The position numbers were made by a program. 64,000 bases of DNA from an uncultured Nitrososphaeraceae archaeon (lineage in GTDB: Archaea > Thermoproteota > Nitrososphaeria > Nitrososphaerales > Nitrososphaeraceae), in assembly GCA_963729045.1 (NCBI GenBank), contig CAVSMN010000010.1, positions 106,559 to 170,558 on the forward strand, read 5' to 3'. Shown here piece by piece: positions 51,001 through 60,000 of this stretch (the stretch's first letter is position 1; every line of letters starts with the position of its first letter).

Positions 51001-54000
51001 GTTAACGTATCATGTAAATCCAGAATATAGGAAAACTTTTACTGATTATGATCACATATATCAAGAGGTAAAATCAATCCTTGAACAAAGTAGAAGGGAA
51101 TTATTAATATTTGCATCTTTTAAAATTTTGAAGAGAATATTTCACAATAAGGATTGGATCAATACTATCGCTTCACTGCTAGCAAGAAGAGTGAATACTA
51201 GAATATTGACAGATGATATTGATGGAGATTCAGCAAGAAAAATTATGCGGATCCAAAATGAAGATAAGGACAAAAGAATCCATTTTGGATATAATGACAA
51301 ATTAGGAAATTTCAATGAACTGGTTATATTAAGTGATGAGAAGTATGCTTTGCAAATAAAGTATGACCATCAAAATAAACTAATAGCATCATTCACTAAT
51401 GAAGAATCCAGTGTTATGATTCAAGAGATATTATTTGAGAAATGCTGGAACGAAGTAAAGAGTCTCGAAGTTGTGAATAGCAATTAGATTAATTACTATG
51501 AGGATAAAAATTTCAACATTATATAAATGAAAAATAAAGTCGACTGGTCCAATAATATTGAATAAATTTAGAGTGGCTTTACAAATTCTTACTAATACTC
51601 AATCTAGTTTTTGCCTTTACTATCAGGAGAACAATCGCCGCTTTCTACGAGCCTTGTGATTTCTCGTTTTTATCGGCATTTTCTTCAGCATCTTTCAAGT
51701 TGTTTATCAATCTTTTGTCTGCCTTGGTGTCATTGCTTGTCCTTTTCCAAAACTTTCCTAATTTTCTAAATAGCACAGAGTCTTTCAACTAATTCTACAT
51801 GTATACTATAGATGAATTTGCTTATAAAGAAAATAACGTCATAAAAACAAGTGCGAGATGCAGGATTTGAACCCGCACTTCGCTCGTACCTTAACCAGGC
51901 TGGGCCAACCTCGCCTGAAATAAAATTAACAATACGGTATTAATAACTTAATGCTGGGCTGTTATTTGCAACTATTCCATATTTTCCCCTTTCTAAAAGC
52001 AATTTTTCTAGCAGAGCTAATGTCACGAATCCCACCTCGGTTTTTTTCCGTACCTTGTCTTATGGAGGTTCCGTATTCGTCTACAATTTCAATAATTACC
52101 TCGTCTTTGAAATACGATTTTAGAATTCCAGCTATTTGATGAGATAGAGCCAAGCTTCCATCACCGATTCTAACTATTTTAGTTGGAGACTCTATTGATG
52201 ACAAAACAAAACTGATTTTTTCAACTGTAGAATTAACCGAAGACAAAATTGTTCTATGCAGGTTTGATTATAAGAGATATAACAACAGAGGAAAAATTAT
52301 CAAGAACCAAAGTAAATACGATCAAATTAAGAATTAAAGAAAACTCTAAACCAATGTAAATTAGATTTTTGAAATACACTTGTATGGTTAGATTCTATTG
52401 ATACCAGGATTAGGCTCGCTTGTCTTTCCGCTCGAGGATTGAATGAAATAATTAAATAGTGAGACTTTGTTCATCCTTGAATTATATCCCTGCGGACCGA
52501 GCAAAGTTAGACTACGGCTAATAGACAGGTCGTGTATTCATTTTTTGAGATACTTGCAATGCAATAAGTTATCGAATATGTTTGACTTACAAAAACAATT
52601 ATTGTATAGATGCTGTACGATTTCAAAGTCTTTCAAATTCTCCACCATCCTAAAGTAATTGTTTCTCTTTGGGAATAATATACAATTTATTATTATATAA
52701 GATTCGTATATAAGAAAATTATCAAATAGATAATACATTGATTTACCCCATCAATTGTTACCTTTCAATGACTAATAACAGTATTAGGAAAAAAATACTT
52801 TATCAAATACCTGTATTATTGATAATACTTGCGATATCCGTTCCAATGGCCACTGCTTCAGGTTTATCCAATGTCTTTTTTTCTTCTCCTAGTATGTCAG
52901 TAAATCAACTTGTATATGCAGAAGATGAGGTTTCCAGTGGTGGAGATCATTTAACTTCATCAACTACTACTGACCCAGTCTTAGGACACAGTCTAATAGG
53001 CTTAACAGTCACTAAAGAAAATGCTAATCCTTCTTTAGTTGAAGAGACTGAAGAACAAGATCTTGATTGTAGATACGTTTCAGAAAAGAATTTCAAAGTA
53101 TCAGAGGAATGATGACATGCCGCAATTTGTTCCAAACCAATTGAATCCCGGCCACGACGGAGGAGAGAAGGTCGCCGAGTTGCGCCCGCTCGCACAAGGG
53201 CAGCCTGATCTGAACGGAGTTTGCGGCCTCAGCCGTCCTCAAAGTATAGTACGCGAGCATGCAAGCAATTCAATTCGCTGGGCTCCTGACGAGCGGCTCA
53301 ATCATCTTCTCGAGGAAGCCTGCGTCCGCTTCGCGACGAACGATGCCGTCATTGGAAGCGGCATCGTTCTGAGTTATCGCGATTTCGACCGCCGTGCCAA
53401 TCAGCTCGCGCGTCATCTGCTCGCACACGGAATCAAGTCCGGCGACCGCGTCGCAATGATGTTTGACAGATCACCAGAAGCATACGTGGCGATGCTTGCG
53501 GTAATGAAAGTCAATGCGGCCTATGTGCCACTCGACGCTGCCTTTCCGATTGAACGCGTCCGCTTCATCCTCGGGGATGCCAACGTTTCCGCCATTCTGT
53601 CAATGTCGAGTTTCGCGGTGCGCCTCTCCGGCGCCCAGGTCAACAAGATATTTCTCGATTCGGAGAGGCAGGCGATCGGTGCACAGGCAGCCAATTCGTT
53701 GACTGGCGTTTCGCCGCCGACCGAGCCCCTCTCCTACATCATTTACACATCGGGCACAACCGGTAATCCGAAGGGTGTTTGTATCGGACACGCAAGTATT
53801 TGCAATTTCGTGCGCGTCGCCGCTGAGCTTTATGGCTATTGCGCCCGGCGATCGCGTCTATCAGGGCATGTCGATAGCGTTCGATTTCTCCGTCGAGGAG
53901 ATCTGGGTGCCGCTGATGTGCGGCGCGACGCTCGTGCCGGGCCCGACTGGCAGGACCCTGATGGGCGACGAGCTCGGAGACTTTCTGCGCAAACGCCGTG

Positions 54001-57000: not shown

Positions 57001-60000
57001 TGTGTGTTGCAGGCACATTCGCTAGAGGAAGGCGTTTTCAAGTCGGACTATATCCGGCTCGGCAACAGGTGCTCGGTCGGCCCGGGGGCCTTAGTTCACT
57101 ACGGCGTCAGCACCGGAGACGACGTCGTGCTCGACGCCGATTCGTTCCTGATGAAGGGCGAGATCCTGGATTCTCATACGGAGTGGTGCGGAAATCCGGC
57201 CAAGTTGGTGCGCCGTCATGTAGCTCGGGCAGAGGTTTGCGTCCAGGACGTCGCCGACACCACCGCCCGAAATGACTTCGCCCCACAATGAGCGACAAGA
57301 TCAGATGCTAAAGAAGATGACCACCGACAATTGGGAAGCGGTGGTCGAGATTGAGCTCCGTGCCGGCCAGGAAGACTTGATGGCGAGCAATTCTATTCGG
57401 TTGCCGAGGCGCAGTTCGATCCCGACACGCGCCCGCGCTGCTGTTTATGCCGAGAAGCACGTCGTCGGCTTTCTGATGTATGACGTACAGAAAAAGAAGG
57501 GCAAGGCGCAGAAAGCCTCGATCTATAACTTCATGATCGATTGGAAGCACCAAGACAAAGGCTATGGTCGCGCCGCGCTGAGCAAGGCTCTGCAGGAGAT
57601 CCGAGCGATCCCGGGGGTGAACAGGATATCGATTCGCTATATGCCAGAAAATCCGATTGCGAAGCCGTTCTATATCATCTTCAGATTCGTGGAGGTGGGT
57701 CGGGACCGCGATGGCGACGTGATCGCGGTTTTGAAACTATAATGTCAGACGGTACAGTCGATTACTCGCTGAAGCGAGCAATCGAATCCCTCTCCTTGCC
57801 TGGTCTGCTGATCGGCCATCGTGTGATTTCGCAAGGCGATGAGCTCGCGCTGCTCCACGAAGAGATGGCGTCGTTATCCTTCCCTACAATCGAGAGGCGC
57901 CGTGCCAGCGGCGCCGCACGACGTGTGGCGCGCGAACTGATGAACTCGATGGGCTTTTCCGGCCTTCCGATCCTCAGGAGCACATTTGGCGCCCCGATCT
58001 GGCCCGCCGGGGTCGTAGGCTCGATGGCACATGATGATCGAATTGCTGTTGCCGCTGTCGGGCTGCGGCGTGACGTGGAAGCGGTCGGCATCGATATAGA
58101 AACTGTCGCGCCGTTGCCGCCGGACATGCTCGAGCTGATCGCCACACCGCGGGAGCGGCATGCGATTGCTGATAACCCATTGGGGGTAAAAATTCTTTTC
58201 GTCATCAAGGAGGCAGTCTACAAGGCGGTCTATCCGCTCGATCATGAGTTTCTGGATTTTCACGATATCGAGGTCGACTTTGCCGGCCGGCTCGCGACGA
58301 CCCAAGCCGGACGCACGCTCGCGCTCCACTGGTGCGTTTTCTCTCACGTGCTGGTCGTGGCGACGATTCATATCTGACCACTATCACAAATTAAGGAATA
58401 GTCACAATTCTGGCATTCCCATCCAGGTTTTGGATTAAATTCCCTTTTCTAATGGATTCAACAATTGAAATCATTTATCCTTTATTTTTATTATATCTTA
58501 ATCTGTAATTTCAATCATTATTTTCTTTTTTTCACGGAGAAACTGGCATCTACTTTTTGTGGTTTTTTCCATACGAATTTTCTTCCACTGATGAATAAAT
58601 TACAAATTGCATGTCTTCATTTAGCTTATTTTTACTTAGCGGTTCTTGATGTCTTGTAATCGATAACTATAAAATCATCTTTATCTTTTATTATTTCTTT
58701 ATACTCTATTTTGTTAACAACTTTTTTTATTTTATCAAAATCCTGTTCTAAGATCGCATCTAAAATCTCTTTAATGTTGATGTCTGTTGATTTTGTTTTA
58801 GCAAAATAAAGTATTTTCTCTATTGCACTTTGATATTTACCTCATTATTGATATCAGCGACTATCCTCTTTGTTAATTCGTCATGGGCATCCAATTTATC
58901 AACCCATGAATTTTCTATTTCAAAATCTTCATACACTATGCACGTCTTTTATTTGTAGTTCTTATCAGCTAAAAATCTAAATAGTTTTGAATTTGTTAAA
59001 TTATTTCTTTATTTTTTGACACAAGGTAACATTTTATCCGTTGCCCTTGTTATTGCAACTTACATTAACTTTCTTTCCTCCTGAATGTGTTGATCTTTCT
59101 CAGAAAGATTAGGTTGAATTCCTTTTAACAGTGTTAGGGTGCTAGGGACAATAAATTTATCTTTTATATATAAAGAAGGAAACTTTCTTTCAATTATATC
59201 TATTATAAACACCACAGGAAATTCCATTCCCTTTGAAGCGTGTACTGTCATAACTTTTATTGCATCCTCATCGCTATTTGTTTCCTGTGAGTAAGTTGTT
59301 GTTGTTTGAGTAGCAACGGGCATCCCTCTAGTATATCATTAGATTGATCCTCGAGAGTAAGACATGGTATGGGACAACCAATATCATCGATAAAACTAGC
59401 CCCTTCAAATGTTTCATTTGAACAAGGATTGTTTTGCTCGGATTGGGTATCAGACGATTGATCATTATTATCAGTCACCTCCTATGATCTTGTCGATTTG
59501 AAAACCAAATTTACCGAATGGTATTATTTAGAAGGAGGTGGAATTTTTTTGACTGAAATAGACCAAAAAATGTATACTAATTTTGTTAGGGAAATTGAAT
59601 GTCTGATAACAAGGTCGGGTTTTTTTATCGAAGAAAAAGAATTGGAAAAATTAAGAGAACTTGTGAGTGCATTCCGTTCAAACCTTCTTCAAAGTATAGG
59701 TACAAGAGAAGAATCACAATACCACAATTAATTGCAAAAAAATGCCCATCGATATCTTTATCCTCAATTTAAGAGATTCTTATGAAGTGACATATTATAG
59801 TAAAACCTCGCGGGTTCAAATCCCGTACTTCGCACCTCTTCTTTTCTCTAAAGGATTTGAACCCGCTTGTATACACTGTGCATCTATCGATCAATTAGGT
59901 AATTAGATTCTTTATTATATCATGAATAATTGTTTTTATACCAAATATTTGATAAAACCTTAATGAATTATGGAATATTTACCCTTAGATTTATAGTTGT

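Follow-up and report, generated by a model that had tools for sequence, protein, structure and literature searches.

An uncultured Nitrososphaeraceae archaeon (genome G000) carries a 5.3-kb high-GC island at 53103-58377, which encodes a Pls/PosA-family synthetase, a GNAT acetyltransferase and a phosphopantetheinyl transferase (PPTase). It was found in a 64,000-nucleotide stretch of contig C10 (the window), the positions of which are used throughout. In the account that we consider likely, this cassette came from Hyphomicrobiales, entered soil Nitrososphaeraceae a single time, moved among genera and landed inside a host gene, bringing with it a predicted route to a cationic polymer. The features of the region are presented in Table 1.

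Base composition and extent of the island

The GC contrast described in the survey's finding was reproduced: all 500-nt windows between 53000 and 58499 have a GC of 0.52-0.62, against 0.27-0.35 in both flanks. G000 contigs show a GC of 0.32-0.35, and the only other 1-kb windows of this genome above 0.52 form four blocks (C12 twice, C20 and C21), which are the sites of the four 16S rRNA genes. GC3 values were 0.87-0.90 for bacterial relatives, 0.83 for the copy in G025, 0.76 for the G000 cassette (0.62-0.76 for its synthetase gene), 0.49 for G044 and 0.22-0.30 for host genes. DNA similarity to other copies begins at 53096-53108 and stops at 58362-58372, and the flanks show no such similarity, in keeping with the cassette limits proposed earlier.

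Table 1. Features of the island and its surroundings in the window
Feature	Position	Strand	Remarks
Truncated host gene	52738..53112	+	N-terminal 122 codons; multi-copy secreted protein family
Pls/PosA-family single-module synthetase	53117..57291	+	~1390 codons; three frames in this assembly
Adenylation domain	53309..54743	+	Pocket code DFEALGTVTK; Pfam AMP-binding, AMP-binding_C, TIGR01733
First +1 insertion	53839	+	CTATTGCG in G000; CTA-TGCG in 8 other cassettes
Thiolation (carrier) domain	54834..55028	+	Pfam PP-binding 34.5 bits; LGANSL serine motif
C-terminal polymerisation domain	55101..57201	+	TIGR02353
Second +1 insertion	56841	+	All covering X1/X2/X6 contigs net one base shorter
GNAT acetyltransferase	57305..57742	+	Acetyltransf_1 36.8 bits; stop overlaps PPTase start (ATGA)
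Sfp/EntD/PptT-type phosphopantetheinyl transferase	57739..58377	+	4PPT_N + ACPS
Relic of second cassette, G044 type	61474..61817	-	85% identity over 344 nt

The synthetase and the integrity of its reading frame

Assignment of the synthetase to the Pls/PosA family holds, with TIGR02353 scoring 486.5 bits (cut-off 423.1) and a further 143.8 bits over profile positions 580-695 in the third frame. The protein possesses A and T domains and lacks C and TE domains; its AMP-binding match spans two successive frames, the first holding profile positions 1-194 and the second 202-383. Three hydrophobic helix pairs (~55098-55301, 55776-56024 and 56571-56759; hydropathy peaks at residues 661-728, 887-969 and 1152-1214) separate three homologous soluble domains in the polymerisation domain (C1 versus C2, E 5e-5; C1 versus C3, E 3e-10), where weak Hexapep matches also occur.

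In this assembly the gene is read in frames 53117-53839, 53841-56840 and 56842-57291. The two breaks, already noted in the survey, are single-base insertions that, among nine aligned cassettes, only G000 has, and contigs of runs X1, X2 and the RNA run X6 have one base fewer at 53837/53839. As the insertions are absent from near-identical contigs of these three other runs and rpoB is likewise frame-broken, the two frameshifts are more likely to be assembly errors than real lesions, as had been suspected. A class-III aminotransferase of G000 is also split. The 1396-aa orthologue of G025, formerly regarded as intact, carries a +2 indel close to the 5' end of the gene, which puts its N-terminal part in another frame. 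An intact 1390-aa relative, P0001, matches the G000 gene read through the insertions at 94-96% identity, the three segments aligning to its residues 1-241, 242-1246 and 1242-1390; an intact relative of this length was also recorded at 97% identity.

A recently inactivated pseudogene, with both frameshifts real and the island being lost as in G045, is the strongest rival, albeit a doubtful one. Neither insertion lies within a long homopolymer, a relic of an earlier copy is found 3 kb away and the main copy has no dedicated promoter leader; dN/dS for G000 versus G025 (0.40) is also the highest of 36 cassette pairs, although the overall range of 0.08-0.40 speaks for selection on the cassette. Decay is also seen in other same-genus copies, namely G045 (many stops, 58/300 invariant residues changed) and, as single-base indels, G038 and G057. 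Against this, the assembly also breaks the frame of rpoB, an essential gene (as is the case in G057), three other runs contain 98-100% identical contigs without the insertions, both the GNAT and the PPTase have undisturbed frames, and 448 of the 449 residues invariant among 15 relatives are retained (the one change being N328S). Contigs of X6, a soil metatranscriptome run, cover 53176-57089 with identity of up to 100%; they are a weak hint of expression, as such contigs can stem from carried-over DNA.

The GNAT and the PPTase

The survey's description of the GNAT gene as frame-broken applies to other archaeal genome copies, in which it is broken or deleted, but not to G000, where it is one open frame of 145 codons. 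Its product aligns without gaps to the GNAT beside the Variibacter orthologue (60% identity, 144 residues), and the solved structures closest to it are those of spermine/spermidine acetyltransferases (E 1e-6). The identity of the PPTase was borne out by its two Pfam domains, and its PDB matches are PptT/EntD-type enzymes (E 2e-24). Its last ~10 codons are unlike those of other copies, so the island ends within the tail of this gene. It is the sole PF01648 match in G000; none was found in two complete same-genus genomes lacking the cassette or in four archaeal controls. The PPTase gene adjoins that of the synthetase in G023, G025, G044 and G122.

Substrate pocket and predicted monomer

The pocket of the G000 adenylation domain has Asp, Phe and Glu at positions 1, 2 and 3, and its spacing (+1, +4, +43, +63, +87, +95, +96 from Asp) matches the PosA residues named in the accessible part of PMC10522769. 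According to the same part, position 2 sets chain length in Pls/PosA enzymes (Ala for Lys, Met for Orn, Phe for Dap/Dab), and a Met-to-Ala change in PosA increased the use of Lys ~10-fold. The Asp is described as holding the alpha-amine and the Glu the side-chain amine (PMC10522769 and PMC12042044, accessible parts). Judged from sequence, Phe at position 2 favours a short diamino acid, Dab or Dap, over Lys or Orn. In G000 neither an EctB-type (Dab) nor an SbnA/SbnB-type (Dap) enzyme attains its cut-off, and in five further cassette-bearing genomes EctB and SbnB likewise fall short; nor do the bacterial orthologues have a conserved precursor gene as neighbour. A Dab/Dap product would therefore have no known monomer supply. 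In the G038 copy, as another sign of decay in this genus, Glu is replaced by Asp at position 3.

The survey's finding had favoured a polylysine-like product. Epsilon-poly-L-lysine or a similar polymer now appears unlikely: a Glu at position 3 would suit any diamino acid, and lysine, present in every host, would suit a cassette without precursor genes, but Ala is what Lys-activating members carry at position 2, and it is the poly-Dap/Dab synthetases that have Phe (PMC10522769, accessible part). Phe occurs in all 15 copies with the exact code and in every other locus scored at this position.

Poly-Dap/Dab synthetases are described in the available text of PMC4668381 as A-T proteins with a membrane domain of three tandem soluble parts; the G000 enzyme shares this architecture and the Asp, Phe and Glu at positions 1 to 3 (PMC4668381 and PMC10522769, as far as available), and differs in having archaeal hosts in which Dap/Dab supply genes were not found and a cassette that includes the GNAT and PPTase. 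The domain order is also that of the founding member, Pls (epsilon-poly-L-lysine synthetase of Streptomyces albulus), the A domain of which (PDB 7wew) matches the G000 synthetase at E 1e-72; Pls, however, has Ala at position 2 (PMC10522769, as far as available), and no GNAT or PPTase partner is claimed for it. PosA (delta-poly-L-ornithine synthetase of Acinetobacter baumannii) shares TIGR02353, architecture and pocket spacing, and both pockets have Asp and Glu, with Thr at position 7 and a hydroxyl-bearing residue at position 9, but the PosA pocket (DMEHNGTVSK) has Met at position 2 where G000 has Phe. Actinomycete homologues fetched are ~45-49% identical, with the pocket DFECLSVVTK.

Origin and spread of the cassette

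Direct relatives (51-66% identity) are the NRPS-GNAT-PPTase operons of Hyphomicrobiales (Pseudolabrys, Pseudorhodoplanes, Variibacter, Rhodoplanes, Mesorhizobium and Brucella/Ochrobactrum), which share the gene order and have an identical or nearly identical pocket (DFEALG[TS]VTK; DFEAMGTVTK in Ochrobactrum/Brucella) and differ in their high-GC host context. Among alphaproteobacterial loci, a GNAT was found in 12 and a PPTase in 17. In trees, the 31 copies in archaeal context group as a single clade within Hyphomicrobiales; the 15 copies from archaeal genomes are monophyletic (FastTree 100, IQ-TREE SH-aLRT 100), among Pseudolabrys, Pseudorhodoplanes and an uncultured alphaproteobacterium. When 48 metagenome loci were added, all 16 with low-GC flanks fell in the archaeal clade (stem 0.166, support 100) and none of the 25 with high-GC flanks did so. 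This nesting and the common gene order uphold the alphaproteobacterial origin suggested before.

The survey had counted the cassette in 11 of 237 other family genomes and four genera; this becomes 12 of 237 and five genera with the addition of G010, and another six matches, confined to AMP-binding at 27-32% identity, are weak. Between genera, cassette dS is 0.23-0.66, far below the saturated synonymous sites of host rpoB (pS 0.77-0.96), which indicates spread among Nitrososphaeraceae by transfer. Together with unrelated flanks, this agrees with the earlier proposal of spread among soil members at different insertion sites. RpoB of G000 and G044 is 99% identical (dS 0.46), yet their cassettes differ at dS 1.34 and have unrelated flanks; the relic of a G044-type cassette in G000 also fits movement among these archaea.

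Separate acquisition from related bacteria by each archaeal lineage, with no transfer between archaea, is improbable. The wide GC3 range among copies (0.49-0.83), as if arrival times differed, and the differing insertion sites would fit it, as would P0104, a 78% identical copy on a 4-kb contig labelled Alphaproteobacteria by its source, which shares the long stem with the labelled archaeal copies and branches immediately outside them. Binning can, however, easily assign a short contig of high GC throughout to bacteria; the archaeal clade on its long stem contains none of the 25 high-GC-context metagenome loci and none of the 74 named bacterial loci, and same-genus copies have a low-GC archaeal-type leader in common. 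Presence in the family ancestor, followed by vertical inheritance and many losses, is highly improbable. Same-genus copies tend to cluster (g12 100; G022/G023 100; g1 92) and G100 and G122 share a syntenic flank, but neighbours are unrelated in all other comparisons, the dS contrast with rpoB contradicts this reading unless synonymous sites of the cassette evolved more than 10-fold more slowly, and cassette GC3 is still 0.76-0.83 in genomes with an rpoB GC3 of 0.30-0.37.

Junctions and the relic copy

The island is a real insertion into a host gene. Homology of the truncated gene (GC3 0.22) to host proteins stops at 53103 ('...KNFKVS'), 'EE*' then being read from cassette DNA, and in G028, G032 and G059 the homologous proteins run on for at least 100 residues past KNFKVS. 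The 3' remainder was found neither downstream on C10 nor as a single piece elsewhere in G000. Contigs of X1 (53011-53529, 1 mismatch) and X2 (52806-53319, 0 mismatches) bridge the left junction, and one X7 contig the right. A bacterial fragment wrongly joined to an archaeal contig during assembly or binning would explain the abrupt GC jump coinciding with gene ends, but can be set aside given independent-run contigs across both junctions, a junction within a recognisable host gene and 31 separate low-GC contexts on contigs of up to 613 kb.

The relic, inverted and 3.1 kb downstream of the island, consists of the low-GC leader and first ~215 nt of a synthetase gene, and is 85% identical to those of G044 versus 67.5% to the main G000 copy. 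The archaeal-type leader (TTTAAATA) is present in four other same-genus copies and absent from the main G000 copy, expression of which would thus rely on read-through from the truncated upstream gene. No mobility gene, target duplication or terminal repeat was found at the G000 island, and no transposase or integrase was consistently present at 11 loci (in a scan of 70 of the 78 flank ORFs): the G057 copy alone is bordered by transposase fragments, and only G022_C17 has an integrase nearby.

A predicted cationic-polymer route in Nitrososphaeraceae

The NCBI name of the G109 orthologue is 'Pls/PosA family non-ribosomal peptide synthetase [Nitrososphaera sp.]', and archaeal homologues of such synthetases are mentioned in the accessible part of PMC10522769. 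The survey's claim of a first NRPS in an ammonia-oxidising archaeon was overstated, since an unrelated Pls/PosA-type gene with a PPTase gene directly downstream is found in 2 (G421 and G428) of 223 sampled genomes of another family of the same class. This gene is an independent acquisition: it scores 631-646 bits with TIGR02353, but shares only 32% identity with that of G000, has the pocket DLESIGTVIK and shows mild GC contrast. Its pocket resembles the 'DLEDIGTV[TVI]K' group reported from archaea and rhizobia in the same part of PMC10522769. Within Nitrososphaeraceae, no condensation domain was found in 238 family genomes, which makes the cassette the only NRPS-type enzyme seen there.

The cassette would have arisen as a three-gene unit in Hyphomicrobiales Alphaproteobacteria, entered soil Nitrososphaeraceae once and later moved among genera, landing in the host gene of G000. 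Judging by family membership, the PPTase, the only one in G000, would add the phosphopantetheine arm to the carrier domain, and the adenylation domain would activate a diamino acid, its alpha-amine presumably gripped by Asp at position 1 and its side-chain amine by Glu at position 3, and load it onto this arm. The membrane domain may then, in repeated rounds, couple the residue on the arm to a free monomer or chain through the side-chain amine of the latter. The GNAT is similar to polyamine acetyltransferases and probably modifies monomer or polymer by acetylating amino groups, for self-protection or as a cap. The predicted product in these archaea would be a secreted, cationic isopeptide homopolymer.

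Island and gene content

All 500-nt windows between positions 53000 and 58499 have a G+C content of 0.52-0.62, with values of 0.27-0.35 on either side; the high-GC island is real and its edges are sharp. The 22 contigs of the source genome (G000) each have an overall GC of 0.32-0.35, and outside the island the 0.52 level is exceeded only by 1-kb windows that form four blocks (two on contig C12, one each on C20 and C21) containing four 16S rRNA genes. This is a high count for an archaeon of this group, and these copies may reflect collapse or duplication during assembly. Three genes make up the island, encoding a synthetase, a GNAT acetyltransferase and a phosphopantetheinyl transferase (PPTase).

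Location of the cassette genes and of other features mentioned in the text (positions along the window unless a contig or locus is named)
Feature	Location	Strand
Island (cassette)	53103-58377	+
Pls/PosA-type synthetase	53117-57291	+
GNAT acetyltransferase	57305-57742	+
PPTase	57739-58377	+
Single-base insertions in the synthetase	53839; 56841	
Indels inside GNAT in X1/X2 strains (-2 and -1)	57359 and 57439-57442	
Truncated upstream ORF	52738-53112	
TATATAAG box	52707-52714	
Relic of G044-type copy	61474-61817	inverted
Repeat with 28-nt core	59808-59875; 43973-44041; 50364-50433	
Multi-copy element of ~410 nt	51849-52257	
UvrD-like helicase fragment	59060-59323	-
200-nt piece and its upstream repeat	59278-59481; 46008-46213	
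Split rpoB and class-III aminotransferase genes, G000	C7:79847-80969; C12:163370-164525	
Split rpoB, G057	C6:386065-388042	
DDE transposase domain and IS481-type HTH fragments, L037 (G057:C5)	3831-4172; 16379-16756	
Second Pls/PosA-type gene, L166 (G421:C39)	833-4735	
Second Pls/PosA-type gene, L167 (G428:C90)	5931-9827	
Radical-SAM gene, L120 (Mesorhizobium)	10926-12185	-

Synthetase

The synthetase scores against TIGR02353, the model for non-ribosomal peptide synthetases of the Pls/PosA family, with 486.5 bits over profile positions 1-572 in one frame (cut-off 423.1), and a further match of 143.8 bits (profile positions 580-695) lies in the next frame; intact orthologues score 655-670 bits. 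Its N-terminus possesses one adenylation and one carrier domain (AMP-binding, AMP-binding_C, PP-binding; TIGR01733), the motifs YTSGTTGNPKG, YRTGD, GRIDTQVKIRGYRIE and LGANSL occur in its translations, and the pocket residues Asp (position 1) and Glu (position 3) are present. No condensation or thioesterase domain was detected in it by Pfam scan. Three pairs of hydrophobic segments are located at residues 661-728, 887-969 and 1152-1214, as placed from Kyte-Doolittle peaks, a simple scale rather than a topology predictor. The soluble parts between and after these pairs (C1, C2 and C3 of the C-terminal polymerisation domain) are homologous to one another (C1 with C2, E 5e-5; C1 with C3, E 3e-10). 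A PDB sequence search gave no match beyond query residue 656 among the best 60 of 109, so that the C-terminal domain is not covered by any of these. As judged by every sequence feature tested, the synthetase belongs to the Pls/PosA family.

Two breaks in its reading frame had been considered likely read errors, and error remains the probable explanation. In an alignment of nine cassettes they correspond to two single-base insertions unique to G000, both outside any long homopolymer. Read through these insertions, the protein matches P0001, an intact 1390-aa metagenomic protein 97% identical across the middle 1000 residues, over residues 1-241, 242-1246 and 1242-1390 (94-96% identity) with no other lesion, and of 449 positions that do not vary among 15 relatives it departs at only one. 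Contigs from four public sequencing runs were aligned to the island region. All contigs of X1, X2 and the RNA run X6 that cover 56841 are shorter by a net single base. A base is also absent at 53837/53839 from contigs of X1 (depth 5.2 of 12.1), X2 (33.5 of ~50) and X6 (5.0 of 5.0), and X7 shows no such difference (0 of 4.5). In the same assembly the rpoB frame is broken inside one Pfam domain and split between two frames, and a class-III aminotransferase gene is split; rpoB is also split in G057, a comparison genome whose cassette likewise has single-base indels, which points to indel errors in both assemblies. Because near-identical contigs of three other runs lack the extra bases and rpoB and the aminotransferase gene are broken too, we consider assembly error the probable cause and real lesions the less probable one, on a comparison with runs other than the reads of G000 itself.

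PPTase and GNAT

The PPTase matches 4PPT_N (59.7 bits) and ACPS (53.0 bits), both over their cut-offs, and is of the EntD/PptT type by PDB matches (E 2e-24). It is the sole PF01648 match in G000, with none found in two complete genomes of the same genus that have no cassette or in any of four archaeal control genomes. The cassette thus supplies the enzyme that its carrier domain requires; since no recipient has an activating enzyme, the block comes with one of its own. The PPTase also adjoins the synthetase in G023, G025, G044 and G122.

The GNAT gene, described in the survey's finding as decayed and frame-broken in this genome, proved instead to be a single uninterrupted 145-codon frame. Its alignment to the GNAT encoded beside the Variibacter orthologue (60% identity over 144 residues) is free of gaps, and 11 other alphaproteobacterial neighbour genes each align to it in one piece; its nearest solved structures are spermine/spermidine acetyltransferases (E 1e-6). 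Among the other archaea, the gene is split over several frames in G025, G038, G057 and G226, and is a stub or missing in G023, G022, G044, G109 and G122. Near-identical strains in X1 and X2 have two indels inside GNAT and an open synthetase frame, the opposite of the pattern in the G000 assembly.

Adenylation pocket and predicted monomer

The pocket code of the synthetase is DFEALGTVTK. The register was first set from GrsA motifs and then compared with the PosA numbering in PMC10522769, where the spacing is identical to that of PosA residues 217, 218, 221, 260, 280, 304, 312 and 313. According to that paper, all these enzymes conserve Asp and Glu at pocket positions 1 and 3, respectively (PMC12042044 assigns the Glu the same role), a Met-to-Ala change in the PosA pocket increased lysine use approximately 10-fold, and the chain-length residue at position 2 is Ala in a Lys-length pocket, Met in PosA (Orn) and Phe in poly-Dap and poly-Dab enzymes. 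Position 2 of the G000 enzyme is Phe. Because of this difference it is neither a strict epsilon-poly-L-lysine synthetase (Pls; Ala) nor a strict delta-poly-L-ornithine synthetase (PosA; Met), and it has the same residue as the synthetases of poly-Dap and poly-Dab. By this rule the monomer would be a short diamino acid and not lysine, which tells against the polylysine-like product previously proposed.

What speaks against Dab or Dap is that no enzyme of the EctB, SbnA or SbnB type scored over its cut-off and no conserved precursor gene was found, although another route to either monomer may exist. In G000 (87% complete), EctB, SbnA and SbnB reach 157, 186 and 19 bits, respectively (cut-offs 552, 350 and 327); neither EctB nor SbnB exceeds its cut-off in any of five further cassette-bearing genomes, and nothing resembling a precursor gene is conserved among 27 ORFs beside the bacterial orthologues at seven loci. 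Continued selection on a cassette that moved with no more than two or three genes points to a monomer present in every host. Dab or Dap is the likeliest assignment, though it falls short of an even chance; Orn or Lys is somewhat less likely, and a different monomer altogether is about as likely as Orn or Lys. At one of the seven bacterial loci, in Mesorhizobium, the cassette is followed immediately downstream, on the opposite strand, by a radical-SAM gene whose C-terminal domain is that of a lysine-2,3-aminomutase.

The exact code was also identified in Mesorhizobium, Astrobacterium and three uncultured proteobacteria, and the closest bacterial relatives differ solely by Ser at position 7. It is unlike any proven-enzyme code available for comparison, and no paper containing the exact pocket strings was found in the literature searched. 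In G038 (L036, G038:C11), whose cassette copy has a +1 indel, the pocket reads DFDGIGTVTK, with Asp replacing the key Glu at position 3; three metagenomic protein clusters have DFDGLGTVTK, so this Asp is not a one-off error.

Bacterial origin

The best protein matches range from 97% identity down through the 70s, on contigs with little else, followed by named Alphaproteobacteria at 61-69%. A scan in which each species was represented by a single genome yielded 579 relatives, and 79 loci were retained. A FastTree phylogeny (89 rows) unites the 15 archaeal genome copies in one clade, with a support of 100, nested in Hyphomicrobiales; an uncultured alphaproteobacterium (on a 3.1-Mb contig) is sister to this clade, and Pseudolabrys and Pseudorhodoplanes come next. 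An IQ-TREE phylogeny of 38 rows is concordant (SH-aLRT 100 for the archaeal clade and 97 for the sister). Metagenome loci were sorted by the GC of their flanks (49, or 48 after removal of one exact duplicate): those with low-GC flanks all fall in the archaeal clade (16/16; stem 0.166, support 100), as do five of seven without usable flanks and none of the 25 with high-GC flanks. The NRPS-GNAT-PPTase order is common to the cassette and the alphaproteobacterial loci. With the archaeal clade nested in Hyphomicrobiales and this gene order in common, the alphaproteobacterial origin put forward in the survey's finding is upheld.

GC at third codon positions is 0.87-0.90 in the bacterial relatives, 0.83 in G025, 0.76 in the G000 cassette, 0.49 in G044 and 0.22-0.30 in host genes. 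A direct transfer between the genera of G025 and G000, considered because of 88% DNA identity, was rejected, as this closeness reflects the very short G025 branch (0.034, IQ-TREE).

Spread among Nitrososphaeraceae

Strong matches to the cassette occur in 12 of 237 other genomes of the family, from five genera. Flanking genes are in common in G100 and G122 only; elsewhere similarity does not reach beyond a few hundred bases from the cassette. Synonymous divergence was calculated by the Nei-Gojobori method for 1000 cassette codons and, in host rpoB, for 470-659 codons. Between genera, cassette dS is 0.23-0.66, a value distorted by compositional disequilibrium with an expected effect of inflation and not shrinkage, whereas rpoB is saturated (pS 0.77-0.96). 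The reverse is seen between G000 and G044, where RpoB is 99% identical (dS 0.46), the cassettes have a dS of 1.34 and the surroundings are unrelated. G000 also contains a relic of a G044-type copy, consisting of 344 nt of leader and gene start at 85% identity. From the dS contrast, this reverse case and the relic, we infer that the cassette postdates the splits among its hosts and undergoes turnover within lineages. Its dN/dS of 0.08-0.40 across 36 pairs indicates purifying selection during most of its history. The proposed spread among soil Nitrososphaeraceae, at different sites, agrees with the low cassette dS against saturated rpoB and with the mostly unrelated flanks.

A paralogous cassette lineage without GNAT and PPTase was identified in genus g10 (L031, G023:C7; L033, G022:C345), with the pocket DFEALGGVGK and 17-19 of the 449 invariant residues altered. 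G023 has an additional standard copy with a PPTase; none was found in G022 (genome 85% complete).

Insertion site and leader

The ORF upstream of the island retains the N-terminal 122 codons of a gene from a multi-copy family of secreted proteins. In three genomes of the same genus, homologues extend at least 100 residues past '...KNFKVS'; in G000 this is followed by 'EE*', encoded by cassette DNA. The missing 3' part was not found downstream of the cassette, indicating that the cassette came with a deletion. The left junction is bridged by contigs of X1 (1 mismatch) and X2 (0 mismatches) and the right by an X7 contig at 93% identity. No tRNA genes were found close to the island or at 14 related loci, no target duplication or terminal inverted repeats at the island ends (longest words in common 8-9 nt), and no mobility genes among 14 neighbour ORFs in the window. 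At 11 other loci (70 of 78 ORFs scanned, the other eight lying farthest from the cassette), mobility genes occur at two only: an integrase (30 bits) near the G022_C17 copy, and transposase fragments ~3.5 kb either side of the G057 copy that might mark a composite element. A search for the flanks in 33 genomes of the genus gave scattered multi-copy pieces and no uninterrupted site.

A low-GC leader of ~130 nt is common to four other same-genus copies and the relic, and carries a TTTAAATA box ~85-90 nt before the start codon; by its sequence it would represent an archaeal promoter gained after entry. The main G000 copy has no leader and abuts the truncated gene, to which the TATATAAG box appears to belong.

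A repeat of ~30-65 nt, with a 28-nt core 96% identical, occurs in the window and, in many copies, in almost all genomes of the genus, frequently bordering the ~410-nt multi-copy element; depth spikes and loose contig ends occur at it in the aligned run contigs. The gene-poor stretch downstream of the island contains an 87-codon fragment of the C-terminal domain of a UvrD-like helicase, and a 200-nt piece of this stretch is repeated 13 kb upstream (87% identity).

Relation to known enzymes and significance

The cassette had been presented as the first NRPS of an ammonia-oxidising archaeon. The canonical NRPS condensation domain (PF00668) is found in none of 238 family genomes, G000 included. 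The claim is nevertheless overstated, and among archaea the gene is not the first of its kind: the G109 protein was already named by the NCBI pipeline, archaeal homologues with the pocket DLEDIGTV[TVI]K are mentioned in PMC10522769, and a second Pls/PosA-type gene occurs in 2 of 223 genomes of another family (401-genome sample of the class). The latter (32% identical; pocket DLESIGTVIK; GC ~0.45 vs 0.38), with a PPTase directly downstream, is unrelated to the G000 cassette. The literature searched yielded no account of an enzyme of this type in ammonia oxidisers, and the available part of PMC6627896 does not mention one. The cassette adds a new member to a known enzyme family, in hosts where it was not expected, and its history of transfer is well resolved.

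Ammonia-oxidising archaea are usually viewed as metabolically lean, with little specialised metabolism. The polycation cassette is real, was acquired horizontally and is probably functional. It illustrates cleanly how a block of bacterial genes crossed the domain boundary once and then continued to move among archaea, and its copies, ranging from nearly bacterial to half-adapted codon composition, provide a natural series in which amelioration can be followed through time. Mesorhizobium, Brucella/Ochrobactrum and Xanthobacteraceae-like bacteria have an orthologous operon that is likewise uncharacterised, and one product solved would annotate many genomes. As the pocket is unlike the proven codes compared and the hosts are without known Dap/Dab pathways, the product is perhaps an undescribed polymer. 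It is conceivable, though rather doubtful, that a self-sufficient polycation cassette of synthetase and PPTase circulates among soil ammonia-oxidising archaea, where it was given an archaeal promoter leader, and yields an undescribed cationic polymer of antimicrobial or matrix-building function. If the synthetase works, some soil lineages would gain a tool for antagonism, surface or biofilm chemistry, or anion binding.
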